DNA of 64,000 nt, taken from NCBI GenBank assembly GCA_910583875.1, contig CAJTXT010000005.1, forward strand, positions 72,104 through 136,103. Direction: 5' to 3'. Positions 19,168 through 63,321 of this stretch are shown in pieces. Position 1 is the stretch's first letter, and every line of letters starts with the position of its first letter. Under the pieces are notes generated by a model. The model was not told where the DNA came from and ran no database searches. It saw nothing but the letters and a program-made list of their open reading frames with translations. Made by a program: the position numbers and the translations under genes. The stretch is from an uncultured Vampirovibrio sp. GTDB lineage: Bacteria; Cyanobacteriota; Vampirovibrionia; Gastranaerophilales; Gastranaerophilaceae.

Positions 19168-19264
19168 AAAGATAAAAGCAGAAAAATTTCATTTTCGGCA
19201 CCTGTGTTTTCGCGATTCCTAAAAACAATGGTGCCAAAAATAAAATTTTTCTGCTTTTATCTTT
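19168..19264 (-). repeat. family-2 repeat
   Basis: Arms match at 33/35 positions. Core 'cacctgtgttttcgcgattcctaaaaacaatggtg'. Ends 4 nt before the stop codon of the 19268 gene. Confidence 0.88.
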
Positions 19265-19267
19265 GAA

Positions 19268-20566: not shown

Positions 20567-20642
20567 TATTTTTCCTTTCTAAAATTATAGGAATGCAATT
20601 GTGTATAAAAATAAAATTAGAATCACGCTCAAAAATAATTAG

Positions 20643-20841
20643 GAAATTATATAGAAATTTACACTAAATCTGCTTAAAAAATAGTAATAATGTCATTCCG
20701 AACTTGTTTGACTACTTTTTCCAAAATCTTTGATTTTGTGAAAAATGTCTGGTTTTCCACGGAATCTTACAATTTGTAAGACCCTGAAACAAGTTCAGGG
20801 TGACAACTTTAGCTATTTTAGTGTAAAGTTGCACATAATTT
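20643..20841. mobile_element. family-1 MITE, full length, carrying a nested 51-nt insertion
   Basis: Ends 'gaaattatatagaaatttacactaaa' and 'tttagtgtaaagttgcacataatttc' are inverted. Two hairpins (ttccg and ccctg variants). Confidence 0.85.
20710..20760 (+). mobile_element. nested 51-nt mini-element (family 3)
   Basis: 'gactactttttccaaaatctttgattttgtgaaaaatgtctggttttccac' splits the hairpin 'ccgaacttgttt|cggaat'. Confidence 0.85.
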
Positions 20842-22361: not shown

Positions 22362-22435
22362 GGCAAGGTAGCTCAGTTGGCGAGAGCGCACGGCTCATAC
22401 CCGTGAGGTCGAGAGTTCGAATCTCTCCCTTGCTA
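22362..22435 (+). tRNA. tRNA with CAT anticodon (Met, or Ile2 if lysidinylated)
   Basis: Cloverleaf folded by hand. Acceptor ggcaagg/ccttgct (G1:U72), D arm gctc/gagc, anticodon stem cacgg/ccgtg with loop ctCATac, T arm gagag-ttcgaat-ctctc, discriminator A. Confidence 0.85.
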
Positions 22436-22467
22436 TTTTTATTTGCTTTATTTTGGGCTAATTCGGG

Positions 22468-22586
22468 ACAGTTTGCGAAATTTGCTCCAAAGTATTGATT
22501 TTATTGAGTTTTAATTTTAAAAAATAGGCAAGAATAAAATTCTTAAACTGGACCAAAACGGACTTTTTTTACCAGTTTAGGAATTC
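22468..22586. promoter_or_regulatory. three copies of the 12-nt motif AATTCnnAAACT / AGTTTnnGAATT
   Basis: 22468-22483 'acagtttgcgaaattt'. 22538-22551 and 22572-22585 form a 14-bp inverted repeat (13/14 match) with a 20-nt spacer. On the minus strand that repeat is followed by a T-rich run, so it may be the operon terminator. Confidence 0.45.
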
Positions 22587-22860
22587 AAGATAGAAAACCC
22601 AGTAAAGAAGATTTTAAATTAGCAGTTGATATTTTAGAAGAAATTTTGAATTACAATGAGCCGTACGAGCAAAAGAAATTCCAAAACAAGCGAAATTGCG
22701 AAATATGCAAAGAGATTATAGAAAAGCGTTATAGATAAAGTTGAAAATTTAATTTTTTTATACCAGTGCTATTTTGAGATTAGAGATATTTATGATAAAT
22801 AAGTATCAAATTGCAAATTAAATTCAATAAGAAGCCTGTTGAACACTTTTTGAACACTAT

Positions 22861-24573
22861 TCATTCGCTAGCTTGTTGATTTGGAAGTTCTGGATTTAAA
22901 TCAATGCCATCAACCCAAGATAATTTTACATTATAACCAAATCCTTTTAAATCCGTAATTATTTTGTCCAAGGCTAACTTACTTATAAAAGTAAGTTTAT
23001 TCTCTCCTTTATCATTAATTATTAAGTATCTAATAGTATAATCTTGATGTGCATTCAAAGAATTGTTTAATCTATGCTTAGGATTATCAAGTTTATCATT
23101 TACACTCGGGACAAAGACTTCTTTCATTGAGGCAAATGCTCTTGCCGAAACATAACCTTGATTAAACAAATGACTCAGATTTGCAGCTTTAGTACCTATT
23201 TTAGAATGAATAAATTCTTTTTTATTAGGTTCGAATATATCACAAATTTCCATTTTATCGCCATCAATGGTAATTTGTTTATTTATTTGATCTAACAATT
23301 CTCCATTCAATTGATTACAAAAGTTTCTATTAAAAATCCTTTCTTTATCAATATGTTTAGTTTCATTTATTTTTTCATTAAGTATTTCTTGAGTAGTATT
23401 ATGTTTTACAGTTTCATCTACTTCTATTGTTTCGCCAATGTCTTCAATATTTTTATTTATTCGTTCATATTTATCAGTAGATAAGCCATACCATACTGCA
23501 TTAGACAGAATATAAACCTGATTATCAAGTTTAAGTTCTCCATATAAACATTTTAATACAGACCATTCTTTGTATTTATTACCTTCTTCATTTAACAAAA
23601 TTATTTTATCTTGATTTAAATTAAGATTTTCTGGAGTTTCTCTTAAGCCAAGATAATCATTTAAAGATAATTTTTCAAATGGTTCAGAACTACGAGAATT
23701 TTCTGCAAGTTTATATTTAATGCTCGAAACAAGAGTTGAATCATAATCAATTTCAGGTTCAAATAAAAAGAAATTTGAGTCTTCCTCTGTAAGTTTATCT
23801 TTTAATATTTCGTTTAATTCTTTCTGTTTTTGGCTCGATAACGGTCTAAGACCTTTAAAAAACTTATTTACAATATCACTATTTATTTGCACATTTTTAT
23901 ATAAATCTAATAATAAACTTAATCTATCATCTAAATAATTCCAACAAGGTATTTCTGATTCTTTAAATCTCATTTTTATATTTAATGGTCCGTATTTGCC
24001 TATAACGGAACTTATTGTTGATGAATCCGCAACTGCATTTAAATGTCTAACTATATCATTATCTTCTAATTCTGCATTAAAAATTTCGTTTGATAGTTCT
24101 TGTGCATTTTGAAATTCTGTATTTCTAGGATTGCTTGATATGTTGCGAGTTCCTGCTCGTCTGATTTTTGCACCTTGATCAATCAAAGCCATTGCTGTAT
24201 ATATCCCAAACGTATCCTCTATTTTGTCTTTTGTTATGTTATGTCTGCCTTGTCCAAAATTTATTGCAAATAGGTATTTTTGATTATTATGTACAATTTG
24301 TTTTATTACAGTAAGTCCTTCGGCTGCGGTATTTGCAAATTTATCTTTAATGGTATCTTTTAAGATTTGCTCATCAAATTCTATTACCCAAGCTGGTTTT
24401 TGTCCTGCGCGTCCATTCTTATATAGAAAATAATTATCATTTTCTTCGCCACCTAAAATAACATTACTTTCTTCATAGTTTTCAATGTAATTATCTCTGC
24501 TATTAAGATTACAGTCTGCTTTTAGTAACATAATGTTTAAGTTAACTGTTTTTACTTTTTCTTCTTCCGACAC
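22861..24573 (-). CDS. 570-aa orphan, possibly a TIGR04141/DUF6119-like 'sporadically distributed' protein
   Basis: GTG start behind GGGAG. N-terminal 'LNIMLLKAD'. C-terminal 'ICDIFEPNKKEFIHSKIGTKAANLSHLFNQG' resembles a nuclease motif. The family name is from memory and was not searched. Confidence 0.35.
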   Translation of the reverse strand: MSEEEKVKTVNLNIMLLKADCNLNSRDNYIENYEESNVILGGEENDNYFLYKNGRAGQKPAWVIEFDEQILKDTIKDKFANTAAEGLTVIKQIVHNNQKYLFAINFGQGRHNITKDKIEDTFGIYTAMALIDQGAKIRRAGTRNISSNPRNTEFQNAQELSNEIFNAELEDNDIVRHLNAVADSSTISSVIGKYGPLNIKMRFKESEIPCWNYLDDRLSLLLDLYKNVQINSDIVNKFFKGLRPLSSQKQKELNEILKDKLTEEDSNFFLFEPEIDYDSTLVSSIKYKLAENSRSSEPFEKLSLNDYLGLRETPENLNLNQDKIILLNEEGNKYKEWSVLKCLYGELKLDNQVYILSNAVWYGLSTDKYERINKNIEDIGETIEVDETVKHNTTQEILNEKINETKHIDKERIFNRNFCNQLNGELLDQINKQITIDGDKMEICDIFEPNKKEFIHSKIGTKAANLSHLFNQGYVSARAFASMKEVFVPSVNDKLDNPKHRLNNSLNAHQDYTIRYLIINDKGENKLTFISKLALDKIITDLKGFGYNVKLSWVDGIDLNPELPNQQASE

Positions 24574-24737
24574 AACTCACTCCCTAAATTTGTAATTGAT
24601 ATTATCATCTTACATATAAAAGTAGAGATTTTTAGAAAAATTAATTATTTTTTAAGGTTTGATAAATCTAACATTTTAGATTATTTACTTTAATTGCATT
24701 TAATGTTGTTATTTTGTCGTATAAACCTTATGTTAAT

Positions 24738-25814
24738 TTATTTTATGTAATCTAAATATTCAAGCAATTTTTTCTGCTCAAGATATTTCATGTAGCTTTC
24801 CATGTATTCGTAATCAGGTTCACCAGTATCAGTAACTGGTAAAGTTAGGATTTCTTTTTTTAATCTAGTATCGCTTCTTTTGTAATTGAAACTATACTTA
24901 CCCCGAACTCTATCTGCAATTGTAGTAATAAACATACCAGAATATTTGTTTAGTTTATTGTTATAACCAACTGTAATATCTGATGTAGCAATAAAATCTT
25001 CGGATTTATATATTGAATACCCCATTGAGCCCTCTCCGTTGCGAATAAATGCAATACAGTTCCCTTTTTGGATTAGATATTCATTTCCAGCCTTTTCTAC
25101 AAAGCAAAGAACTCCATTATTCCTATTAGTTGCACCTAGATAAGGTATTCCTTGTTCATGTACTTGTTCTAAGTGATTCAAGCCTTTACTTTTGCCTGCC
25201 ACTAATACTGGGAATATAGCTTTTATTCTAAAATCACACCAACTTTTATTATCAATAATGTTCTTTTTTAACTTCTTTAATTGAGTTAGCTTAAGAACTT
25301 TGTATTGTTCTTTAAGTTTAATTTCACGCTCTTTTATATATTCTTCCATAAATTCGTAATCAGGCTCACCTTTTGAATTTATAGGTAGCATTATCTTGGC
25401 TCTTTTTAATCTGTCACTATTAAATAAATAGCCATAAGAAGCCTTGTTAAGTGCGGTATTTTCTATAGTTTTACATAAAAATAATGCAACATATTTATTT
25501 AAATCTTTTTTATATAAAAGATTTATAGAAGCACCACTAAATCCTCTACCAACAAAGTTATATTCGTGAAAAAAAGCTTTACCCTTAATCGGATCAATAG
25601 AAATAGCATTTTTTGAACTTATGCATCTTTCATTCGCTTTTACAAAAGATATTAGTCCATTATTCAATGTAGAAGTTGAAATATACGGTATATTTCCATC
25701 AATATAATTTTCTATAGGTTTCCCGTACACATTTTTGATTTCAAACAATTTGCAAATCTGAAAATCTTTCCATTCTCTGTCTTTTAAAGATTTAACCATT
25801 TTTACCCTCATCAA
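24738..25814 (-). CDS. R-M specificity subunit (HsdS-like, BcgI-B-like) with two target-recognition domains
   Basis: 358 aa. Internal duplication: 'PINSKGEPDYEFMEEYIKEREIKLKEQ' and 'PVTDTGEPDYEYMESYMKYLEQKKL' end the two halves. Confidence 0.8.
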   Translation of the reverse strand: MMRVKMVKSLKDREWKDFQICKLFEIKNVYGKPIENYIDGNIPYISTSTLNNGLISFVKANERCISSKNAISIDPIKGKAFFHEYNFVGRGFSGASINLLYKKDLNKYVALFLCKTIENTALNKASYGYLFNSDRLKRAKIMLPINSKGEPDYEFMEEYIKEREIKLKEQYKVLKLTQLKKLKKNIIDNKSWCDFRIKAIFPVLVAGKSKGLNHLEQVHEQGIPYLGATNRNNGVLCFVEKAGNEYLIQKGNCIAFIRNGEGSMGYSIYKSEDFIATSDITVGYNNKLNKYSGMFITTIADRVRGKYSFNYKRSDTRLKKEILTLPVTDTGEPDYEYMESYMKYLEQKKLLEYLDYIK

Positions 25815-27714
25815 ATAAATAGGCTCTGCCTTGTGCTATCATTGAGAACTCAAATGTTAAATAATCAGCAATTGTTTTGTTAAAATCTTTTTCTGTTGGT
25901 ATTTCGTCATTAAAATAATAAAAAGAGTGTAACCATTCGTCAGTTGGTTCAATAGTAGATTTAACACAGAATTTTGTAGGAGCTTCAATTCTATTAAACC
26001 ATACATCTAACAAATGTTGTTTCTTGTCTTTAGCATATTCTGTTTCGACTAAGCCAATGTGTGGAGATACTTTGAAACCATCGTCCTTGAAATCAATAAA
26101 TTTACATTCTTTATCTTTAGGATGTGGTTTATGTGCTGTAAATATAGCTATACATGGATTAGTTCCCACCCCATAAAAAGTATCGCCACTTAAAGTAATT
26201 ACCCCTTCTAATGTGTGGTGCTTTAGAATGTTTTCCTTATAGTTTTGTTCATCTTTTGTTTTGCCAGTTAAAGATGATTGAGGAATAATAACCACAACCT
26301 TACCATCTTCTGCCAAGGAATCTAATAAATGTTCGACAAAACTAATTTCATATAATGACGGATTCGCTTTAGAACCTTGACTATAAGGAGGGTTCATCAT
26401 ACCAACATTGGCACCTTTAAGTTGCAATTCAGCTTCATTGCATCTTAAAAAGTCTTCATCTATTAAATTGCTTTTGCCATCACCACGTATAATCATATTT
26501 GTTGTAGCAATAGTAAACATATATGGTTGAAGTTCTATACCATGAAGCTGATTTTTACGGATACTCTCTTTTTGTGTTTCGGTTTTGGCTTTCTTTAACA
26601 TATTATGCATTGCAGCAATTAAGAATCCCGCCGTACCACAGCAAGGGTCAAAAACAATATCATCAGGTTTTAAGTCAACAAGATCACAAAATAATTGAGT
26701 TATATGTTTAGGTGTTAAAATTATTCCTAATGTTTGCCCATCACCTCCTGAATAACTCATAAATTCACCATAAAATCTTCCAAGATAATCTTCTGCAGTT
26801 TTTGTATATTTTATGGTTTTGTAAATATTATCATAAATTTGTTCAGCATAGTATTTTAAAGGAGTTTTACCTAAAATTGGGTTAATTTCATTTAAAATCT
26901 TTGTATCTTTAATAACTGCAAATTGAGTTAATAGTTTATCTTTTTTTACAGTAGGTGAAACTTTAGAACGTTGTAAATTTTTATCAATGGCATTATAAAT
27001 TTTATTTCCATCTGTGTCTATATCATCCCCTATAAGTTGTTCAAGATTAAATGACCCTTTTTCAATTTCTCGAAGAGCAAGCAAGATTCCAGAAACAACA
27101 AGAGGCTTCTGTGTATCTTGCAAATTACCATAATTTCTTAAATCCTCATGTAAATTTTTGGCGAATTTAAGAATTTCGGTTGTTTCTTTTTGCAAATCAG
27201 TGTTTTCGCCGAGAATTTCTCTTGTATAATATTCGTCGATATTTTCTTCATTAAATATATAAAATGATTCGACATCTGGCATTATCTTGCAATACTCACG
27301 TTCATTTATAAATAGAGGTGTAATTTTGTGATGTTTTTCATTTCCAGAAACACCAAATGCAATGATCTTTTTATAATTAGTATTATTTATAAGATGTTTT
27401 CCATAAAAGTAAGCACCATTTACTGCGTATTGTCCGACAGATTTAGTATCTGTACTTATTAAATTCTTGTCATCATATTTTACATGTTTTGATAGATCTG
27501 ATTTATCTTCAATGACAAGTATAAAATCTTTCACAACTCCAACATACTCCGGAAAACCAACATTTCCAGTACCTTTCTTTGATGCTGTTTTTAATGCTTC
27601 GTCAATTTCTTTTATTGAACAGCCTTGTGGGTCTAAACAGATTTTTGCTTCTTTTAATAAATCATAAACCCATAAATCAGTTTTGACTTCCTTTTTTGCC
27701 ATATCATATACCAT
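25792..27714 (-). CDS. fused endonuclease and N6-adenine methyltransferase subunit (BcgI-A-like, Type IIB)
   Basis: 640 aa. N-terminal PD-(D/E)xK-like 'GFPEY-x12-VIEDK'. SAM motif 'VFDPCCGTAGFL'. Catalytic 'MNPPYSQ'. Overlaps the S-like gene by 23 nt. Confidence 0.7.
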   Translation of the reverse strand: MVYDMAKKEVKTDLWVYDLLKEAKICLDPQGCSIKEIDEALKTASKKGTGNVGFPEYVGVVKDFILVIEDKSDLSKHVKYDDKNLISTDTKSVGQYAVNGAYFYGKHLINNTNYKKIIAFGVSGNEKHHKITPLFINEREYCKIMPDVESFYIFNEENIDEYYTREILGENTDLQKETTEILKFAKNLHEDLRNYGNLQDTQKPLVVSGILLALREIEKGSFNLEQLIGDDIDTDGNKIYNAIDKNLQRSKVSPTVKKDKLLTQFAVIKDTKILNEINPILGKTPLKYYAEQIYDNIYKTIKYTKTAEDYLGRFYGEFMSYSGGDGQTLGIILTPKHITQLFCDLVDLKPDDIVFDPCCGTAGFLIAAMHNMLKKAKTETQKESIRKNQLHGIELQPYMFTIATTNMIIRGDGKSNLIDEDFLRCNEAELQLKGANVGMMNPPYSQGSKANPSLYEISFVEHLLDSLAEDGKVVVIIPQSSLTGKTKDEQNYKENILKHHTLEGVITLSGDTFYGVGTNPCIAIFTAHKPHPKDKECKFIDFKDDGFKVSPHIGLVETEYAKDKKQHLLDVWFNRIEAPTKFCVKSTIEPTDEWLHSFYYFNDEIPTEKDFNKTIADYLTFEFSMIAQGRAYLFDEGKNG

Positions 27715-29014
27715 CCTTTAAAATTTCATCAAACTTGCTTGCCATGTACAATGGAATATTATAAAGCCCATTGTTTATCTCAAAATTCGCAAGTGAAGTT
27801 CTTATGCTTATCTCGGGTTCAAATTTTTCTCGATAAACCTTAAGACTTTTTGCTTGTAAATTTGTATTAGCTTTCACTTCAACAGGAATAACATACCCGT
27901 CAGTTTGAATAATAAAATCAATCTCAGCATTTCCAGACTTACTTATCCAATAAGCAATTTCCATATCTTCAATAGTTTTTAATTGTTGCAGTACGTATTG
28001 TTCTGCTAAAGCACCGTTAAATTCTGTAAAAATTTTATCTCCTTCAATCAAAGTTCTTGCTGGAAGCTTACTTAATGCAGATAATAAACCTACGTCTAAA
28101 ATAAATAATTTAAATGCTTTGGTGTCTTCATATGCTTTTAATGGTAAAGCAGGTTTTGTAATACGGTTTATTTTATAAACCAGTCCACAATTAATAAGCC
28201 AAGATAAAGCTTCCTCAAACTCATCTGCCCTTGCTCCGGATTTTATTTTTTTATAAACAAACTTCTTACTTTCTTGAGTTAATTGACTTGGAATTGACTC
28301 CCATAGTAAATCAAGTTTCAACTTGCCAGTAGAAGATATATGTTTTGAGAAATCTCTTGTATATGCATCTAAAATATTTTCTTGAACCTTACGAACTTTT
28401 TGAAAATCATTTGTTTCAATAAATGTACTAACCACTTCTGGCATTCCGCCAACGTAATAATATTTTTTTAACCATTCAATATACTTTTCTTTAAAAACTT
28501 TTATATTAGGAGATTTAGGACTTTTTAGTAATTCTATAAAATTACTTTCACCAATGGCATCTAAAAATTCTAAAAATGATAGAGGATATAAATCAAGAAA
28601 ATCTACTTTTCCAACCGGAAAAGAAACATTCTCATGAATAGCAACTCCCAATAAACTGCCAGCTGCAATAATATTATATTCTGGAGTGTTTTCATAAAAA
28701 TATTTAAGAGCCGTTAAAGCTTTTGGGCATTCTTGAATTTCATCAAGTATTATTAGTGTTTTTTGGGCATCAATTTTAGAATGGGTTAACTCCAAACCTT
28801 CAATAATTCTTTTTGTATCAAAATCTATTGAAAACAGATCACACATTAACTTGTCTAATTCAAAGTTTATATAAATAACCTTTTTGTATTCAGTTTTGCC
28901 AAACTCTTTCATTAACCAAGTTTTGCCAACTTGACGAGCCCCTCTGATTATCAATGGTTTTCGTTTTGAATTATTCTTCCATTCTATGAGCTTATTTATT
29001 GCATATCGTTTCAT
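27704..29014 (-). CDS. AAA+ ATPase (AAA_14/DUF4143 type) with a C-terminal PD-(D/E)xK-like motif
   Basis: Likely start 'MKRYAINKLIEW' (the ORF track extends to 29065). Walker A 'GARQVGKTW', Walker B 'LIILDEIQ'. C-terminal 'AEIDFIIQTDGYVIPVEVKA'. Confidence 0.75.
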   Translation of the reverse strand: MKRYAINKLIEWKNNSKRKPLIIRGARQVGKTWLMKEFGKTEYKKVIYINFELDKLMCDLFSIDFDTKRIIEGLELTHSKIDAQKTLIILDEIQECPKALTALKYFYENTPEYNIIAAGSLLGVAIHENVSFPVGKVDFLDLYPLSFLEFLDAIGESNFIELLKSPKSPNIKVFKEKYIEWLKKYYYVGGMPEVVSTFIETNDFQKVRKVQENILDAYTRDFSKHISSTGKLKLDLLWESIPSQLTQESKKFVYKKIKSGARADEFEEALSWLINCGLVYKINRITKPALPLKAYEDTKAFKLFILDVGLLSALSKLPARTLIEGDKIFTEFNGALAEQYVLQQLKTIEDMEIAYWISKSGNAEIDFIIQTDGYVIPVEVKANTNLQAKSLKVYREKFEPEISIRTSLANFEINNGLYNIPLYMASKFDEILKDGI

Positions 29015-29203
29015 ATAATCTCTCTCAGTATATAACTTAACAAAAATTAATAATAAATAACTCATCCGAAAATACGATTTTACATTTTTTTAAACGACTT
29101 TTGAGAAATTTATAGCATTATATCAAATGACTTTGAGTGGTAATATTACATTTTTATTAACTACTTTTTCTAAAAATAAAGTTACTTAAAAATAACGTTG
29201 CCC

Positions 29204-29251
29204 GAAATTCTCAAACTATCTGTGAAAAATTCCTAAACTGTTTGTGAATTT
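29204..29251. promoter_or_regulatory. three more copies of the AATTCnnAAACT motif, including a 23-nt near-palindrome
   Basis: 'gaaattctcaaactatc' (29204-29220) and 'aattcctaaac-t-gtttgtgaatt' (29228-29250). Located between the WYL gene stop and the ATPase start. Confidence 0.45.
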
Positions 29252-29292
29252 ACACAATTGAAAGGTTATAGATAATTTAAAATGGTTTAAAT

Positions 29293-30255
29293 TTAATAAT
29301 TTTTTAAATTACTTTCCATATATTGTTTATACTCAGCTTGCAGTGATTTTGGTGCAATAATTTTGCAGCCGCTGCCCCATTTGAATACATGCCAAATGAT
29401 TTCTAAGCTTCCGCTTGCTCTAAAAGTTACAGTATAACTACCGTCCGTATTATATTTACCCCTTTGTGTCGGATGGAAATTGAATTGACTCGCTTCCTGT
29501 GCTAGTTCAGGTGAAAACAAAAGTTCAACATCAAGAACTTCACCGTGATACACACCAAAAGACTGGTTTGTATATTTTTGCAAGTTAAAATCACCTTTAT
29601 CAAATGTTTTATCGGTAAGTTTTAATCCTTCAAATTTATGCAACAAATAGTTATAAATTCCATTACCTTTGGCTTTTTCCCTTGCAACAAGATAAATCTT
29701 TTCTCCGTAAATCATTCCAAGAGGTTCAATTAATCGAATTTTATCGTTATAAATTCCATTAACCATTTTTGAATGTTGAACAGCTTCCCGAATAATTTCC
29801 AGCGTTTCTATACTAATCTTATATTGCGGCATTTGGCGGACTGCATAACCTTCTGTTTGCATATACAGTTCAATATTTGTTTCAAGAGAATTTGCATTTT
29901 TACGGTTAAATGTCTTAATTTTTTCAACTGTTTTGGCTAATTCTGCTTTCATTTCTTTATTCGTTGTTCTGCGTTGGCATTGCTCAATATTTGCTATCTC
30001 TTTAGGAGAAAAAGAAATCAAATTTGAAATTGAATAGTTTATAAATCCCCAATGTTTTTGAGAATCGTTTGTTTCAATTTCATCAACAGACGGAAAAATA
30101 CAAGTTAAACTATCTCTCATTCGTTCTGCAGTCCTTCGTGAAACATTATATCGTTCTGCAATTTCAGAAATCGTTACCCCTTGAATTTTTGATGACATAA
30201 AAATTGCCAAATCTAAAATATCTGAAATTCGTGAATATCTTGGTTTATCTTGCAT
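29293..30255 (-). CDS. HTH plus WYL-domain transcriptional regulator (BrxR/CapW-like architecture)
   Basis: 320 aa. wHTH 'VTISEIAERYNVSRRTAERMRDSL'. WYL-like 'YNDKIRLIEPLGMIYGEKIYLVAREKAKGNGIYNYLLHKFEGLKL'. Confidence 0.7.
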   Translation of the reverse strand: MQDKPRYSRISDILDLAIFMSSKIQGVTISEIAERYNVSRRTAERMRDSLTCIFPSVDEIETNDSQKHWGFINYSISNLISFSPKEIANIEQCQRRTTNKEMKAELAKTVEKIKTFNRKNANSLETNIELYMQTEGYAVRQMPQYKISIETLEIIREAVQHSKMVNGIYNDKIRLIEPLGMIYGEKIYLVAREKAKGNGIYNYLLHKFEGLKLTDKTFDKGDFNLQKYTNQSFGVYHGEVLDVELLFSPELAQEASQFNFHPTQRGKYNTDGSYTVTFRASGSLEIIWHVFKWGSGCKIIAPKSLQAEYKQYMESNLKNY

Positions 30256-40620: not shown

Positions 40621-40755
40621 ATAAATTTACTAATCTTTCTTTTAATTCTAAACTGGTTAGATGCTGAAACAAGTTCAGCATGACGTATTGAGAAAATAAA
40701 GTGATAAATAATTATAAACAACATATCAACTATATACTGTCACCCTGAACTTTTT

Positions 40756-40806
40756 GACTACTTTTTCCGAAATCTATGATTTCGAGAAAAATGTCTGGTT
40801 TTCCAC
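40756..40806 (+). mobile_element. nested 51-nt mini-element (family 3)
   Basis: 'gactactttttccgaaatctatgatttcgagaaaaatgtctggttttccac' lies inside 'ccctgaacttttt|agggtc'. Confidence 0.85.
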
Positions 40807-40866
40807 AGGGTCTTGCCAACTTAACATAACTAATCATTGACTTAATTCTAAATCACCTAGATGCTG

Positions 40867-40888
40867 TGGGAAACCAGACATTTTTCAA
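40867..40888 (-). mobile_element. family-3 fragment
   Basis: 'tgggaaaccagacatttttc' equals the reverse complement of the 3' end of the 51-nt element. It interrupts an 'agatgctg' hairpin arm. Confidence 0.6.
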
Positions 40889-40980
40889 AAATTTTTAATC
40901 TTAAGAATTAACCTTACAAACTGTCTTTATATATTCAAAGTAGTGTATAATTTTTTATAGAAGATACTGAGGAAAATATA

Positions 40981-45979: not shown

Positions 45980-46985
45980 ATACAAAATATTAATAGTAGA
46001 TGATGAACCGGATAACCTGGCATTATTATATAGAACGCTAAGAGGGAGATATGAAATTGCGAAATCCACATCTCCTGTTACAGCCCTTGAAATGCTTAGA
46101 CAAGAGCATTTTCATTGCATTCTTTCTGACCATAAAATGCCAGAGATGGATGGTGTTGAATTCTTAAAAAGAAGTTATGAAATTTCACCAAATACAATGA
46201 GATTATTAGTAACAGCATATACAGATGCAGGTATCTTAATAGATGCTATTAACTATGCAAAAATTTATAGATATATAAAGAAACCGTATAATCCGGATGA
46301 ATTAATTTTAATTGTAAATAATGCACTAGAATATTGGCAATTAAAATATGATAACAGTTCTTTGGTTAATGATTTAAAAGAATTATTTGCAGGTACAATT
46401 ACGGCAATTGTAGAAGCACTTGATGCTAAAGATTCTTATACATTAGGAAGAAGCAGAAGGGTTACTTTTTATGCCGTAAAAATAGCTAAAGCACTTCATT
46501 TAAGTGACACAACTACTGGTAAGATTGAACTTGCAGGATTATTACACGATATAGGTATGATTGGTGTTTCTGATGACATTTTGGCAAAAGTTGAACAATT
46601 ATCAACTGAAGAATACTCAGAAATAAAAAAACACGTTGATCATAGTATAAAAATCCTTGATGATATAAAACAATTAAAGGATGTTGTCGAAATTATAAAA
46701 TATCACCATGAACACTTTGATGGAAAAGGTTATCCTTACGGTAAAAAAGGAGAAGAAATTCCAATCGGTTCAAGAATTATTGCAGTTGCAGATGCGTTTG
46801 ATAGTATGATAACACCAAAAGCATATAGAAATCAGGTTGTACCGTCGCAAGCTCTTGCAAGAATAAAAGAAGTAACAGGAACTCAATTTGACCCTGTTGT
46901 AGTTGAAATTTTTGAACAAATTCTTCCTGATACACTTCGTGAAATAAAAGAAGCAGAAAGAAATTTACGCGCTAAACAAGTTTAA
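45972..46985 (+). CDS. response regulator with an HD-GYP c-di-GMP phosphodiesterase domain
   Basis: REC 'ILIVDDEPDN', 'LSDHKMPEMDG'. 'LLHDIGM' and 'HHEHFDGKGYPYG'. Overlaps the kinase gene by 8 nt. Confidence 0.88.
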   Translation: MDKYKILIVDDEPDNLALLYRTLRGRYEIAKSTSPVTALEMLRQEHFHCILSDHKMPEMDGVEFLKRSYEISPNTMRLLVTAYTDAGILIDAINYAKIYRYIKKPYNPDELILIVNNALEYWQLKYDNSSLVNDLKELFAGTITAIVEALDAKDSYTLGRSRRVTFYAVKIAKALHLSDTTTGKIELAGLLHDIGMIGVSDDILAKVEQLSTEEYSEIKKHVDHSIKILDDIKQLKDVVEIIKYHHEHFDGKGYPYGKKGEEIPIGSRIIAVADAFDSMITPKAYRNQVVPSQALARIKEVTGTQFDPVVVEIFEQILPDTLREIKEAERNLRAKQV

Positions 46986-47078
46986 ATAAGAATGATAAGA
47001 TTTTTTTAGTTAGAAGGCATTGTTTTCGCGTATGCAGAAAACACAGGCTTCTAACTAAAAAAATCTTATCATTCTTAT
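46986..47078 (+). repeat. family-2 repeat, core variant
   Basis: Perfect 31-bp arms (46986-47016 / 47048-47078). Loop 'gcattgttttcgcgtatgcagaaaacacagg'. Starts at the base after the stop codon. Confidence 0.85.
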
Positions 47079-47137
47079 TTACTTATAATTTTGTGATAAT
47101 ATAAAATAGTCAGAATTTAAATAGAGGTCTATTTTAT

Positions 47138-48892: not shown

Positions 48893-49012
48893 TTTACACT
48901 AAAATTACTGAATTTGTCACCCTGAACTTGTTTCAGGGTCTTACAAATGGTAAGATTCCGAAACAAGTTCGGAATGACATTATGACTATCTTTTGAGTCA
49001 ATTTAGTGTAAA
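48893..49012. mobile_element. family-1 MITE, compact complete copy (reference copy)
   Basis: 'tttacactaaa...GTCACCCTGAACTTGTTTCAGGGTCTTACaaatgGTAAGATTCCGAAACAAGTTCGGAATGAC...tttagtgtaaa'. Confidence 0.88.
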
Positions 49013-50198: not shown

Positions 50199-51332
50199 TT
50201 ATTTAGATGTCTTTTCTGTATCACCTTCAGGGTTAACCGAAATTTTAACTTGCCCTTTAGATACTTCAAATATAGTTTCCGTTGCATATGCAACATAATT
50301 TCTATATTTCTTTTTTCTAATTTTTTTGTCTTTAATCAATTTATCAACATGTTCAAAATAAGATTGCATATACTTTATTCGATTTTCTTTATCTTCACAC
50401 AACCATTGAAGAAATGGTTTATTTCCCTTCTTAGAATTACATCCGCTATGCATTGACATATAATTACTAATATCATCATGGTTATTTTCAATATCATATG
50501 CAAGAATATGGTCAGTATTTGCTACTGAAGTAGATACTAATCTGGAAGCAATTTCATCTGATGACCAAGCTTCTCCATGTTTATTTTTACCGGAATATTT
50601 AACTATCCAAGCCGAATTCATATCAGAAGAAACAGGGAATTCACTTGCCAGTTGTTGTAATTTTTTAGTTTTATGAGGGTTCGAAAGATTTATTTTACTA
50701 ATATCTTCTAACATTATTTTACGTCTAAAAGGAGCTTCTTCATTATTTTTATATATATGACTTTGTATTCCTTTTGCTTTTTTTAACAATAATTCTTTTT
50801 CCTCAGAAGGAAGACTATTTGCTAATGCCTTTATTTTTTGGACTTGTCTTTTTTGTATCTCTTGTAATTGAGGTAATTTGGCATCTCTTAACTTACATAC
50901 AAGACTTCTAATATCTTTTTCTCCAGAAAAATCTGCCATACGAAGAAGTTCATAATAAACACTTTTTTCAACTGGACGCATATAATCAGTATATTGACCC
51001 ATATAATCCAATTGTTCTTCCGGAGGAAGTTCTGAAAGGTCATTTTTTATTTTATGAAACAATGTTTTATTCATCATCTTTTGTCCACAAGCAGGACAAG
51101 GAACATCATTAAACTTTGAAACTAAGAAATCACCGGAATATTCTTTCAAATTATGTCTGGAGGTTGAAACTTTTCTTTCTGTACCAGTAAAGCTCAAAGG
51201 ATAATAAAAAACATTACTCAATTCTTTTATTTGAGCAGTTTGAGGATTACTAATCGGATTTTGAACAACTTGCGGTTTTACATAACTATTTTTGTAAAAA
51301 CCGATAGAATTAATTACAGGGTTAATTTTCAT
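50199..51332 (-). CDS. HNH-nuclease-domain protein with a CxxC element and an F-x-G leader
   Basis: 'CPACGQKM'. C-terminal 'NTDHILAYDIENNHDDISNYMSMHSGCNSKKGNKPF' follows a D-H...N...N..K HNH pattern. Leader '...YPLSFTGTE'. Confidence 0.6.
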   Translation of the reverse strand: MKINPVINSIGFYKNSYVKPQVVQNPISNPQTAQIKELSNVFYYPLSFTGTERKVSTSRHNLKEYSGDFLVSKFNDVPCPACGQKMMNKTLFHKIKNDLSELPPEEQLDYMGQYTDYMRPVEKSVYYELLRMADFSGEKDIRSLVCKLRDAKLPQLQEIQKRQVQKIKALANSLPSEEKELLLKKAKGIQSHIYKNNEEAPFRRKIMLEDISKINLSNPHKTKKLQQLASEFPVSSDMNSAWIVKYSGKNKHGEAWSSDEIASRLVSTSVANTDHILAYDIENNHDDISNYMSMHSGCNSKKGNKPFLQWLCEDKENRIKYMQSYFEHVDKLIKDKKIRKKKYRNYVAYATETIFEVSKGQVKISVNPEGDTEKTSK

Positions 51333-53362: not shown

Positions 53363-53369
53363 AATTTGG

Positions 53370-53568
53370 GAATTATATAGAAATTTACAATAAACATGTT
53401 CAGAATATAGTCATAATGTCATTCCGAACTTGTTTCGGAATCTTACCAATTGTAAGACTCTGTGGGGAACTAGGCATTTTTCACAAAATCACAGATTTTA
53501 GAAAAAGTTGTCAAACAAGTTTATGGTAACGACTTCAACTTTTTTAGTGTAAAGTTATACATAATTTC
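53370..53568. mobile_element. family-1 MITE, full length, carrying a nested insertion
   Basis: Same ends as the 20643 copy ('ggaattatatagaaatttaca' and 'tttagtgtaaagttatacataatttc'). Confidence 0.85.
53462..53512 (-). mobile_element. nested 51-nt mini-element (family 3)
   Basis: 'gtggggaactaggcatttttcacaaaatcacagattttagaaaaagttgtc' interrupts 'gtaagactctg|aaacaagtt'. Confidence 0.8.
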
Positions 53569-53701
53569 TTAAATTTTTTTTAAAATTTCAAAAAAATGCG
53601 CAAAAAATTTTTTGTTCATGTTTTGTATTAACGGCTAGTTGATAAAAACACGAAAATAGTATATAATTAATAACCCATGAGAATGTAAAGGAGAGAAGTA
53701 A

Positions 53702-60221: not shown

Positions 60222-60305
60222 TAAAATTTATAGTTTAAATGCAACAAATATGACTACTCTTTAAGTGTATAGATTGTAGTATTGAAATACCCTAAACTTA
60301 TAAAT

Positions 60306-60656
60306 ATGAACATATCAGAAATATTTGGACATAATGTAAAAAAATATAGGGACTTGCACAATTTATCACAAGAAGAATTGGCATTTCGTTTGTCGGTTAA
60401 TCTGTCTAATATAACAAGGATTGAGGCTGGAGCACAATTTGTTACCGCTGAAACATTACAGAAAATTGTTGATATTTTCAACATTGAACCATCAAAATTA
60501 TTTGAAGTAAATAAAGAAGATATAAAACAAAATAAAAAAAGTACAAATAAAGAAAAACTAATAAAATATATAGAAGTTCAAACAGAAGAAGATTCTAAAT
60601 ATTTTCTAGCTTGTTTTAAACAATACATAAAACACATAGCAAAAATATCAAAATAA
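60306..60656 (+). CDS. XRE-family HTH protein, paralogue 1
   Basis: 'FGHNVKKYRDLHNLSQEELAFRLSVNLSNITRIEAG'. Start set at the internal Met; the ORF track starts at 60282. Confidence 0.7.
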   Translation: MNISEIFGHNVKKYRDLHNLSQEELAFRLSVNLSNITRIEAGAQFVTAETLQKIVDIFNIEPSKLFEVNKEDIKQNKKSTNKEKLIKYIEVQTEEDSKYFLACFKQYIKHIAKISK

Positions 60657-60660
60657 TGTT

Positions 60661-60993
60661 TTAATTATCTTTTAATGCATCTATTATCGTAAGTATAATT
60701 TTTCTTTTCTCAAAAGATAAATCTTTGAATTTTTCGCATATTAAGAATTGAAGTTCTTTATCATCAATGTTTAAAGACTCATCATCAAATAAAAATAATC
60801 TTGCGACAGGAAGATTTAAAGTTTCTACTACTTTGACAAAAACAGGATATGAAGGGAAAGTATAACCTGTTTCAATACCTGATAATGTTTGGGGAGTAAT
60901 GCCTGCTTTATCCGCAAAATCAATTTGGCTTAACCCTAACTTATTTCTATAATATTTAACTCTTTTTCCAAAGTCTTTTTTAAAATCCATCAT
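60661..60993 (-). CDS. XRE-family HTH protein, paralogue 2
   Basis: 'FGKRVKYYRNKLGLSQIDFADKAGITPQTLSGIETG'. Confidence 0.75.
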   Translation of the reverse strand: MMDFKKDFGKRVKYYRNKLGLSQIDFADKAGITPQTLSGIETGYTFPSYPVFVKVVETLNLPVARLFLFDDESLNIDDKELQFLICEKFKDLSFEKRKIILTIIDALKDN

Positions 60994-61075
60994 TATTCAA
61001 ATGTAATAATGATAAGCATTTTTAGCAATCAACTATAATCGTATTATTCGACTATGATTTAAATGGTTATAATTT

Positions 61076-61218
61076 ATACTACACTTAAAAATTTATTGTC
61101 ACCCTGAATTTATTTCAGGGTCTTACCAGCTTATTAGTAATTTTTTAATTCTTTATCCATTATAAATCTTTAGTATTCATTTCTTATTGGTAAGATGCTG
61201 AAACAAGTTCAGCATGAC
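61076..61218. mobile_element. family-1 MITE with a long spacer
   Basis: Hairpins 61098-61126 (ccctg variant) and 61189-61218 (tgctg variant). Spacer of about 62 nt. Confidence 0.8.
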
Positions 61219-61290
61219 ATATTTAATTTTTTCCTAATAAGATTCAAAGTTATATCAATTTAACTATTTTTCCAAAATATTTATAATACT

Positions 61291-61629
61291 ATGACAAAAA
61301 GTACTCTTAAAAAAGAATTAGGTTCAAAATTTCAATCTATGAGGAAACGCCTAGGTTTATCACAAGAAAAACTAGCAGAGTTAATAGGTGTATCAACCAA
61401 CACCATATCAAAGATTGAAACAGGAAATAGATTCCCATCTTGTAAAACATTCGAAAATATAGCTAGTGCTTTAGAAATAAATTTATCAGAGTTATTTGAT
61501 TTCACAAATAAAAACATTCAACCAGATGTAACCAAATCTTTAATTCTTGAATTAAAAGAATGCGATATTGAAACACAAAAAGTTATTCTAGCTTTTACAA
61601 GATTTTATAAAAAAGAACATCACAAATAA
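61291..61629 (+). CDS. XRE-family HTH protein, paralogue 3
   Basis: 'LGSKFQSMRKRLGLSQEKLAELIGVSTNTISKIETG'. Confidence 0.75.
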   Translation: MTKSTLKKELGSKFQSMRKRLGLSQEKLAELIGVSTNTISKIETGNRFPSCKTFENIASALEINLSELFDFTNKNIQPDVTKSLILELKECDIETQKVILAFTRFYKKEHHK

Positions 61630-61636
61630 TTTTTGA

Positions 61637-61846
61637 GAGTTATATAAAATTTACACAGAATCTACTTAAAATACAGCAATAATGTCATGCTGAACTTGTT
61701 TCAGCATCTTACCAATAAGGAATTGAAACAAAAGAATACAATATATAAGAATAAAAAGCATAATTATAAGCTGGTAAGACCCTGAAACAAGTTCAGGGTG
61801 ACAACTTTAGATAGTTCAATTTATAGTTGTATATAGCCCATAATTT
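61637..61846. mobile_element. family-1 MITE with a long spacer, inverted relative to the 61076 copy
   Basis: Hairpin order is reversed (tgctg, then ccctg). The spacer ends 'caataagg...ataagctg' match the reverse complement of the 61127-61188 spacer. Confidence 0.8.
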
Positions 61847-61928
61847 TTTTAGTACTCATTATAAGAGGACAATAACAATCTAGAAAATACTAACTATATT
61901 ACTTATTATTATTCAAAGGAGAATTATC

Positions 61929-62270
61929 ATGAATAATATAAGTATATTAAAAGAAATAGGCAAATTTCTGAAAATGTATAGAGAATCTAAAAATATATCA
62001 ATAAAAGAACTATCAAAACGCACAAACCTAAGTGAAGATGAAATAATTAAAATTGAAAATGCAGAAATTGACCAATATATGTTTGTAAATGCCTTTGTAA
62101 ATTATGTAATGAAAATCTATGTAAAAGCTTTATCTGACAATAAATAAATTAATTTTGATAGTTCTGCAAACTATGATAACGCCATAAATATTGCAGCCCA
62201 AAATCTTAATGATAAAGATAAACAATTTATCCTTAATTTTATTCAGCTTTATCAAAAATCAAAACAATAA
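61929..62270 (+). pseudogene. XRE-family HTH paralogue 4 with an in-frame TAA at 62145
   Basis: After the stop the same frame reads 'INFDSSANYDNAINIAAQNLNDKDKQFILNFIQLYQKSKQ*'. This aligns with the C-terminal halves of paralogues 1-3. Confidence 0.55.
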
Positions 62271-62292
62271 ATTATATACTTATAAATAAACT

Positions 62293-62425
62293 GTCACCCT
62301 GAATTTATTTGACTACTTTTTCCGAAATCTATGATTTCGAGAAAAATGTCTGGTTTTCCACAGGGTCTTACCAGCTAAAATATTATTTTCAAATTGGTAA
62401 GATGCTGAAAAAAGTTCAGCATGAC
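62293..62425. mobile_element. family-1 MITE carrying a nested insertion
   Basis: 'gtcaccctgaatttattt|...|agggtcttac' plus 'ggtaagatgctgaaaaaagttcagcatgac'. Confidence 0.8.
62311..62361 (+). mobile_element. nested 51-nt mini-element (family 3)
   Basis: Identical to the 40756 copy by eye. Confidence 0.85.
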
Positions 62426-62680
62426 AGTTATTATTTTTAATAATGTATCAAATAAAAAACATTTACATTTCCAAAAGTCACCAATACCACAAAGTTTTGG
62501 AAATATATTTCCAAAACTCTAATTTTATACAAAAATCATATTAATAACATTCGATAATATTCCTAATGTTTCACACAATGGAATAAAACAAATATTTGCA
62601 CTAGATTGGTTATTATCTTAATAATAGTTTTTTAAAAATTTTTTATTTGACTTTTATTTAAACATCATTAAATAAAAAAT

Positions 62681-63065: not shown

Positions 63066-63093
63066 AAGACCGTCAAAATGGCGGTCTTTTTTT
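63066..63093 (+). terminator. rho-independent terminator
   Basis: Stem aagaccg/cggtctt, 9-nt loop, T-run. Confidence 0.6.
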
Positions 63094-63210
63094 GCGGAAT
63101 AAGAAAAATGCACAAGGGGTATTTGTTTCGAAGTCCATTGATTTTAGGAACCGCGAAATTACAGGACGAGAAGCAAATACCCCTTGTGCATTTTTCTTAT
63201 TCCGCAAAAA
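63089..63210 (+). repeat. family-2 repeat
   Basis: Perfect 37-bp outer arms 'tttttgcggaataagaaaaatgcacaaggggtatttg'. Core 'gtccattgattttaggaaccgcgaaattacaggac'. Confidence 0.88.
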
Positions 63211-63312
63211 CAAACAACAAAACAGTAAAAGATTTAATTTTTCGTCCTGTGATTTCGCGGTTCCTAAAATCAATGGACTTCAAAATTAAATCTTTTACTG
63301 TTTTGTTGTTTG
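63211..63312 (-). repeat. family-2 repeat, abutting the previous copy in opposite orientation
   Basis: Perfect 31-bp arms 'caaacaacaaaacagtaaaagatttaatttt'. Core 'gtcctgtgatttcgcggttcctaaaatcaatggac'. Confidence 0.88.
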
Positions 63313-63321
63313 TTTTTAAGC

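Follow-up and report, generated by a model that had tools for sequence, protein, structure and literature searches.

A 50-nt, apparently mobile DNA element inserted near the tips of small repeated hairpins in gut Gastranaerophilales

Genes and repeated hairpins in the window

The window, by which we mean the whole 64,000-nt stretch of DNA analysed here, has a G+C content of 29% and a counterpart in assembly GCA_949927535.1 (contig CATLEV010000005.1, positions 71011-135010). A defence-type island occupies 22362-30255 beside a tRNA gene (22362-22435) and carries genes for a DUF6119 protein, a type I restriction specificity subunit, an N6 DNA methylase, an AAA_14/DUF4143 ATPase and a WYL-domain regulator. 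The 377-aa protein encoded at 50199-51332 is kept in related strains; an HNH nuclease domain at its C terminus is the only domain recognised in it. XRE-type HTH genes form a cluster at 60282-62147, with copies of a small hairpin that we call H1 lying among them; a related strain (L103) lacks two of the clustered genes and the intervening repeats.

The H1 hairpin has the form TGTCA-[7-nt arm]-CTTGT-[7-nt arm]-TC and is found in several compensated arm variants (CCCTGAA/TTCAGGG, TGCTGAA/TTCAGCA, TTCCGAA/TTCGGAA and TCCTGAA/TTCAGGA). An H1 hairpin may stand alone, form an inverted pair with another through TCTTAC..GTAAGA, or lie within a larger repeat that possesses outer inverted repeats. All 18 H1 hairpins of the window are intergenic: 13 are empty, four are filled by an additional segment and one is filled by a truncated segment. 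The reference for the empty state is a double hairpin at 48915-48979 (TGTCA[CCCTGAA CTTGT TTCAGGG]TCTTAC AAAT GGTAAGA[TTCCGAA ACAAG TTCGGAA]TGACA), and the other empty hairpins start at approximately 12058, 18196, 18268, 20780, 40655, 53417, 61097, 61190, 61683, 61775 and 62398. The filled state is exemplified on the plus strand at 20691-20766 (TGTCA-TTCCGAA-CTTGTTT-[element]-CGGAATC), to be compared with the empty form TGTCATTCCGAACTTGTTTCGGAATC at 53417-53441.

The filled hairpins are themselves parts of larger host repeats. The repeat (MITE) at 20631-20837 (repeat families D2 and D4) is bounded by outer inverted repeats and contains a pair of H1 hairpins that face inward; of these, the left is filled. 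Sequence comparison identified another at 40738-40891 with both hairpins filled, the right one by a truncated segment, and a double-hairpin repeat without outer inverted repeats at 62292-62426, in which the left hairpin is filled. Finally, a repeat of ~211 nt at 53366-53576 has its right hairpin filled. Other strains lack this repeat at the corresponding site (alignment A1 against L089, L090 and L092), which indicates that the host repeat is mobile. This repeat is bordered by an imperfect ~8-nt duplication, T(A/T)AAATTT. Such a duplication suggests that the outer repeat may have been moved by a DDE-type enzyme. The nesting of a small insert within a MITE within the genome, as put forward in a preliminary description of this DNA, is thus borne out by a host repeat that carries the insert and is itself missing in other strains.

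The contigs of other strains end at repeats, and the between-strain comparison, made through the flanking proteins and the members of their clusters, recovered only the presence or absence of the whole MITE at 53.4 kb. Because short-read contigs break at repeats, the comparison of filled and empty hairpins at orthologous sites was blocked. Gene order also differs in the relatives that carry members of the recA and SNF2 helicase clusters, and the intergenic regions beside these genes are therefore not orthologous.

Copies and boundaries of the 50-nt element

The window contains four full copies of the inserted segment and one fragment, all of which were found by sequence comparison where the preliminary description had placed them. 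Copy 1 (GACTAC...GGTTTTCCA) lies on the plus strand at 20710-20759, between GAACTTGTTT and CGGAATC in a hairpin of the TTCCGAA/TTCGGAA type, and is 92% identical to copy 2. Copies 2 (40756-40805) and 4 (62311-62360), both on the plus strand, have the same sequence (51/51 identical positions from 40756 and 62311); copy 2 is flanked by GAACTTTTT and CAGGGTC, and the immediate flanks of the two copies differ (GAATTTATTT for copy 4 vs GAACTTTTT). The more diverged copy 3 (~85% identity over the core) lies on the minus strand at 53463-53512, in the right-hand hairpin of its host repeat, with the minus-strand junctions ...AAACTTGTTT^GACAAC...CCCCA^CAGAGTC, where ^ marks a junction. The 3'-terminal fragment of a further copy, on the minus strand at 40867-40886 (lengthened by nhmmer to 40891), still has its CAGCATC arm attached and occupies the second hairpin of the host repeat of copy 2. 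It ends in TTTCCCA and copy 2 in TTTTCCA, and this difference identifies it as a separate insertion; the two hairpins of the repeat at 40738-40891 thus hold non-identical copies. The internal hairpin motif of the element occurs four times in the window, against 0.21 occurrences expected by chance.

We compared filled hairpins with empty ones (...GAACTTGTTT^CAGGGTC against ...GAACTTGTTT[GACTAC...GGTTTCCCG]CAGGGTC) and found that the inserted unit is 50 nt long, for example 20710-20759. The length of 51 nt originally proposed included a C that is the first base of the CAGG/CGGA arm and lies outside the element. In both of the hairpin contexts in which the element was found, its first and last bases differ from the neighbouring flank bases, so that the boundaries are unambiguous; the filled/empty comparison revealed an exact 50-nt difference and no target-site duplication. 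The termini can be written TTT^GACTACTTTTTCC on the left and GGTTT(C/T)CC(G/A)^ on the right. They do not form terminal inverted repeats, GACTAC... and ...TTTCCCG not being complementary. The preliminary description was therefore correct on both absences. A DDE-type MITE was rejected for the 50-nt element, which has neither terminal inverted repeats nor a target duplication, unlike the outer host repeat, which has both. The element contains no genes.

When the empty hairpin is folded, the insertion point GTTT^C falls two bases into the 3' arm of a 7-8 bp stem. The position is fixed, as had been noted, but it is not strictly within the 5-nt loop, at whose 5' edge the insert had been thought to lie.

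A conserved fold that includes the last base

The element is predicted to consist of a 5' GACT, a 15-bp hairpin (two bulged T, 3-nt loop), a single C, and a 3-bp hairpin (CGG-TTTC-CCG). Pairing in this second hairpin runs up to the final base of the element. The internal hairpin noted earlier is thus present, although it extends to 15 bp with two bulges and is accompanied by the second, 3-bp hairpin. As DNA, the 50 nt fold with -9.5 kcal/mol (z = -4.2).

Across copies, the 15-bp helix is paired in 99% of cases, with compensations from CG to AU in five copies and from AU to GC in three, but many of its columns were set by the search pattern and its invariance therefore says little. The terminal pair of the 3-bp hairpin is C-G in 69 copies, T-A in 18 and unpaired in four, counts that related copies can inflate, and it is the pair with the highest mutual information within the element. 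The secondary structure of the element is conserved with compensatory changes, including the pair at its last base. That two exactly complementary positions change together suggests recognition of the right end as a structure. Mutual information between the target flank and internal positions revealed no signal of a guide sequence.

Distribution and a second target hairpin

We scanned one genome per species with a pattern that consisted of the element core only, and matches were obtained at no fewer than 87 loci from at least 23 species genomes (assemblies). A profile search over ~750 kb of matched DNA plus the window then counted at least 106 full-length and at least ~16 partial copies. Among the matches listed, all related loci belong to Candidatus Gastranaerophilales, gut Melainabacteria/Vampirovibrionia. 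The Gastranaerophilales are non-photosynthetic relatives of cyanobacteria. A scan of viral contigs and BLAST searches of plasmids and phages yielded no match to the element.

All copies among the matches listed lie 3' of (G)TTT in a single orientation, with TT nearly invariant, and nearly all of them are in H1 at the identical position and orientation. The exceptions occupy an unrelated hairpin, H2 (GTAGGTTGGGTTT^[element]^TAACCCAAC), which was found filled in L011 (four copies), L024, L041 and L055 and, in decayed form, in the metagenome contig L105, a distribution that covers three further species genomes and one metagenome contig. Empty H2 hairpins (GTAGGTTGGGTTTTAACCCAAC) occur within the same locus as filled ones. 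To the left of the insert H1 and H2 have GTTT in common, and their flanks share no other homology; H2 carries a GTAG at its 5' side. A metagenome scan filtered against the main context revealed no third hairpin context and yielded one decayed H2 copy and one variant of H1. The flanks of the copies uphold the single orientation relative to the hairpin claimed in the preliminary description, which is the same in ~100 copies among the matches listed, and they show that the unrelated H2 is occupied as well.

Evidence for insertion

Three paralogous composite repeats of one genome (>300 nt) align at >90% on either side of the 50 nt and differ by exactly GACTAC...TTTCCCG, located between ...GAATTTATTT and CAGGGTCT. 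Filled and empty paralogues are thus related by an exact 50-nt presence/absence without target duplication, as had been anticipated. Such an exact indel between paralogues does not alone polarise the two states, and palindromes promote deletions; the filled hairpin could be ancestral and the empty ones 50-nt deletions. We consider this the least probable of the readings weighed here. Empty hairpins outnumber filled ones 13:5 in the window, which is an unbiased sample, and in the empty state the stem of 7-8 bp is perfectly paired, with its two uppermost A-T pairs bridging the junction, so that deletions would have to be base-exact every time. The same relation between filled and empty states is found in the unrelated H2, and elements diverge less than their hosts: within genomes, over columns not fixed by the search pattern, divergence is 6.6% for the elements and 12.4% for the host hairpins, and in one genome these values are 5% and 21%.

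In 88.7% of cells the two arms that flank the insert can pair with each other, and they come in several compensated variants (UA 41 and CG 31 at one pair). Paired arms of several types are expected from independent hits and unexpected if one filled master copy had spread. The compensated host arms point to repeated, independent insertions that would have entered pre-existing hairpin variants. In the window, five out of five insertions are in the 18 H1 hairpins, against 1003 GTTT sites of which 125 are intergenic. We found no insertions outside hairpins, although the 4-nt target alone would predict them.

The 50-nt element also spreads passively as its host repeats multiply. In three genomes (CALVCA, CALUVE and CALUPV), the degree of similarity is the same for the element as for its flanks, and for CALVCA and CALUVE this implies that hitch-hiking on host repeats contributes much of the copy number. 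It is conceivable that all copies are explained in this way, the insert being a long form of the host hairpin that arose once or a few times and was multiplied by hitch-hiking and by gene conversion or recombination, with no machinery of its own. The mobility of the host repeat agrees with this, as do the equal similarities in the three genomes, the mismatched arms of some filled hairpins (which crossovers inside the element would give) and the lack of a transposase in 859 kb of loci; Correia and ERIC repeats likewise have long and short forms that differ by site-specific internal indels. We nevertheless think it unlikely that passive multiplication accounts for the whole pattern. The same 50 nt are found in an unrelated hairpin whose flanks are homologous in GTTT only. 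At least four compensated arm types exist among filled hairpins, mostly matched, where conversion from one donor would homogenise them. Moreover, elements are more alike than hosts in several genomes, and compensatory changes maintain the structure of the element itself.

In CALVCA (L022, L030, L033 and L034), a composite unit is present at least five times, in which a full element and its arm are followed, after the linker TTACCCCAGGGAATAAG, by a 37-nt element truncated at its 5' end and by a further arm. An aberrant or one-ended event could have produced this unit.

The strong conservation of sequence and structure across at least 23 species might also be expected of a functional module, such as a protein-binding site, a small RNA or a regulatory hairpin, that is kept by selection and copied by recombination without being selfish DNA. 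Several results make this highly improbable. The orientation of the window copies relative to flanking genes varies, and the orientation of the copies against the coding strand (59:42) is not significantly biased. No Rfam family matched: with Rfam 15, the window yielded tRNA only, and the best sub-threshold score of the filled repeat was 18.5 bits against a cut-off of 65.3. Promoter and terminator scans of the element returned signals at chance level. Truncated and decayed copies exist, and the element invariably lies within selfish repeats. We saw no sign of an RNA or regulatory role for the element.

At L079:3015-4358 and in 38 similar ORFs of the loci, the reading frame passes through the 50-nt element and repeats of the H1 type and continues into an N-terminal sequence that is prepilin-like. 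Such ORFs suggest that the repeats may often lie just upstream of pilin-like genes.

Search for the enzyme

We searched the 859 kb flanking the copies for a Y1 HUH transposase (PF01797) or RAYT-like ORF using phmmer, a profile of 120 TnpA homologues and a RAYT motif regex, and found none; the window likewise yielded no Y1 transposase. The IS608 TnpA probe was validated. None of the 20 window ORFs checked is a transposase, no TnpA, TnpB or IscB was found near the copies, and clustering of multi-copy ORFs revealed no multi-copy transposase ORF in the 859 kb of loci. A global search for TnpA homologues returned Helicobacter- and Campylobacter-like proteins only; it had no taxon filter and is uninformative. 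The full-length IS200/IS605 element with the same ends that the preliminary description envisaged was not found: in the loci examined, we saw no longer element with both ends of the 50-nt element. Circle junctions (...GGTTTTCCA^GACTACTTTTTCC...) and tandem copies were searched for and none was found.

Comparison with known systems

IS200/IS605 elements integrate downstream of a short motif without duplication and excise without a scar, and their non-autonomous copies are moved in trans (PMC10055086). Like these elements and PATEs, the 50-nt element lacks inverted repeats and duplications, has a fixed orientation at a short 5' motif, shows precise presence/absence and depends on hairpins. Described PATEs, in contrast, are several hundred nucleotides long and the present element is much smaller. 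IS200/IS605 elements have similar imperfect, transposase-bound hairpins near both ends, whereas this element has one bulged 15-bp hairpin and one dissimilar 3-bp hairpin, and its target, unlike theirs, is limited to the vicinity of hairpin tips. Its left end is separated from the large hairpin by only 4 nt, compared with 16-19 nt between the left cleavage site and the hairpin in IS608 and ISDra2. IS200/IS605 elements favour the lagging-strand template; the copies of the present element showed no orientation bias against either GC skew (53:48) or the coding strand (59:42) over 8-kb pieces, which are a weak proxy for replication direction. The IS200/IS605 or PATE identity suggested in the preliminary description is hence partly supported. 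The fixed position and orientation, the conserved 5' GTTT, the hairpin and the absence of duplication would fit, but the similar end hairpins and a Y1 gene in the 859 kb do not accompany them, and the family assignment is not established.

The host hairpins resemble REPs and REPINs: they are short palindromes with compensated stems, intergenic, and often arranged as inverted pairs separated by a linker, as in REPINs and BIMEs. A domesticated Y1 enzyme acting in trans, as RAYT does for REPs, is the kind of partner that would be expected (PMC3116915, PMC6006769). The 50-nt element is an insert within REP-like hairpins and is not itself a REP, and the motif search of the loci detected no RAYT gene. 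REPs and REPINs have a 5' GT[AG]G before the palindrome, whereas the element starts with GACT, and its GTAG is confined to the other strand, on the 3' side of the hairpin.

IS1397/ISKpn1, IS621, ISPpu9/10 and ISPa11 have been described to insert specifically, and in a set orientation, into palindromes that are small and repeated; more generally, elements of the IS3, IS110, IS4, IS256 and IS5 families specifically target REP hairpins, and the IS110 family is without inverted repeats and uses a single orientation of insertion (PMC1525189). These precedents raise the possibility that the 50 nt are a miniature derivative of a hairpin-targeting double-stranded DNA insertion sequence, either of the IS110 family (bridge RNA and DEDD recombinase) or of an IS3 type such as IS1397. 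We judge this very unlikely. The known REP-targeting elements are autonomous, 1-1.5 kb in length and dependent on DDE or DEDD enzymes, and their insertion is marked by a duplication or by core bases that are shared. The IS110 family leaves shared core nucleotides at the junctions and DDE enzymes leave a duplication, whereas the junctions seen here share no base and bear neither trace. The element also lacks inverted repeats, and multi-copy ORF clustering revealed no such transposase in the flanking 859 kb. IS110 elements rely on their own DEDD transposase and a bridge RNA, both of which the 50-nt element lacks, and its length is far below the ~150-200 nt needed for a bridge RNA.

Two other types of target were considered. 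An IS91-type target (CTTG/GTTC) was rejected, as the insertion point lies 3 nt further along and H2 is without the motif. Integron-type recombination at G^TT was rejected because RYYYAAC/GTTRRRY boxes do not match the hairpin and a shared overlap is absent.

Correia and ERIC repeats exist with and without an internal segment of 50-70 bp at a fixed site. We know of no such internal segment in unrelated hosts, whereas the same 50-nt element is found in two unrelated hairpins. The small dispersed repeats (SDR) of Nostoc, a sister lineage of Melainabacteria, are reportedly 21-27 nt long, with the mover unknown (Elhai et al. 2008, Genome Res 18:1484). By description only, they are alike in being very small, gene-less, hairpin-forming inserts inside other repeats. 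To our knowledge, targeting near a hairpin tip after GTTT has not been described for SDRs.

Proposed mechanism

Our results identify a very small non-autonomous mobile element, which is real and apparently undescribed and whose mechanism we infer. On balance, we think it probable that the 50 nt are non-autonomous mobile DNA specific to Gastranaerophilales, which would insert one-way and without duplication 3' of a 5'-GTTT exposed near the tip of a small hairpin. Transposition would pass through single-stranded DNA, and an enzyme of the HUH/Y1 type, supplied in trans, may cut and rejoin the strand in the peel-and-paste style of IS200/IS605. Such an enzyme would fit because the element has no inverted repeats, no duplication, a scarless presence/absence, a 5' motif on one strand and a dependence on hairpins. 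Under this model, GTTT would serve as the transposon-adjacent target motif, the large hairpin as a putative protein-binding site, and the terminal mini-hairpin would set the cleavage site at the right end. The active strand would be the one that reads GACTAC..., since GTTT is conserved on that strand only. The 4-nt target alone fails to explain the restriction to hairpins; either the target has to be presented close to the tip of a hairpin, or genuine transposition is rare and hitch-hiking has produced the majority of copies.

A more speculative version of this reading, which we hold to be unlikely, is that the element represents an unrecognised class of ultra-small (50-nt) mobile DNA that would home near the tips of repeated hairpins by a single-strand route and be moved by a domesticated host HUH enzyme or by an enzyme of unknown kind.

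Two further kinds of sequence were observed at hairpin tips. In a related species, an H1 hairpin downstream of recA is empty in one strain (L109, ~2865-2890) and holds a 237-nt insert in others (L110, 2848-3084; also L107, L108, L111 and L112). This insert, seen at a single locus, lies in the H1 loop between GAACT and TGTTTC without target duplication, and the sequence at its left end (GCGAATTTTCCG^CAGG) is similar to that of the 50-nt element at its 3' end together with the arm. The window itself holds a second repeat family (12134-12196, 12213-12359, 18958-19064, 19083-19150, 19165-19267, 46983-47081, 63084-63215 and 63206-63317), in which a conserved core of ~37 nt (GCACCATTGTTTTTAGGAATCGCGAAAACACAGGTGC) is found at the tip of long, near-perfect hairpins with arms of 26-68 bp and locus-specific sequence. 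This family was not found in the loci of other species, and long hairpins without the core were not found in the window. With the second repeat family and the 237-nt insert added, hairpin tips would be a general site of insertion in these genomes.

Significance

If it is mobile, as our evidence suggests, a unit of 50 nt made of a hairpin and two short tails is among the smallest transposable units in bacteria and would come near the minimum DNA substrate of a single-strand transposition system. The target rule is unusual in that a 4-nt motif is effective only near a hairpin tip, and such a rule is relevant to structure-dependent DNA insertion and possibly to engineering. Our search of the literature on repeats in Melainabacteria found nothing, and these bacteria possess a rich and so far undescribed repeat system in which REP-like hairpins occur together with composite MITEs and nested inserts. 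Short-read assemblies break at such repeats, which could be used to mark strains in gut metagenomes.
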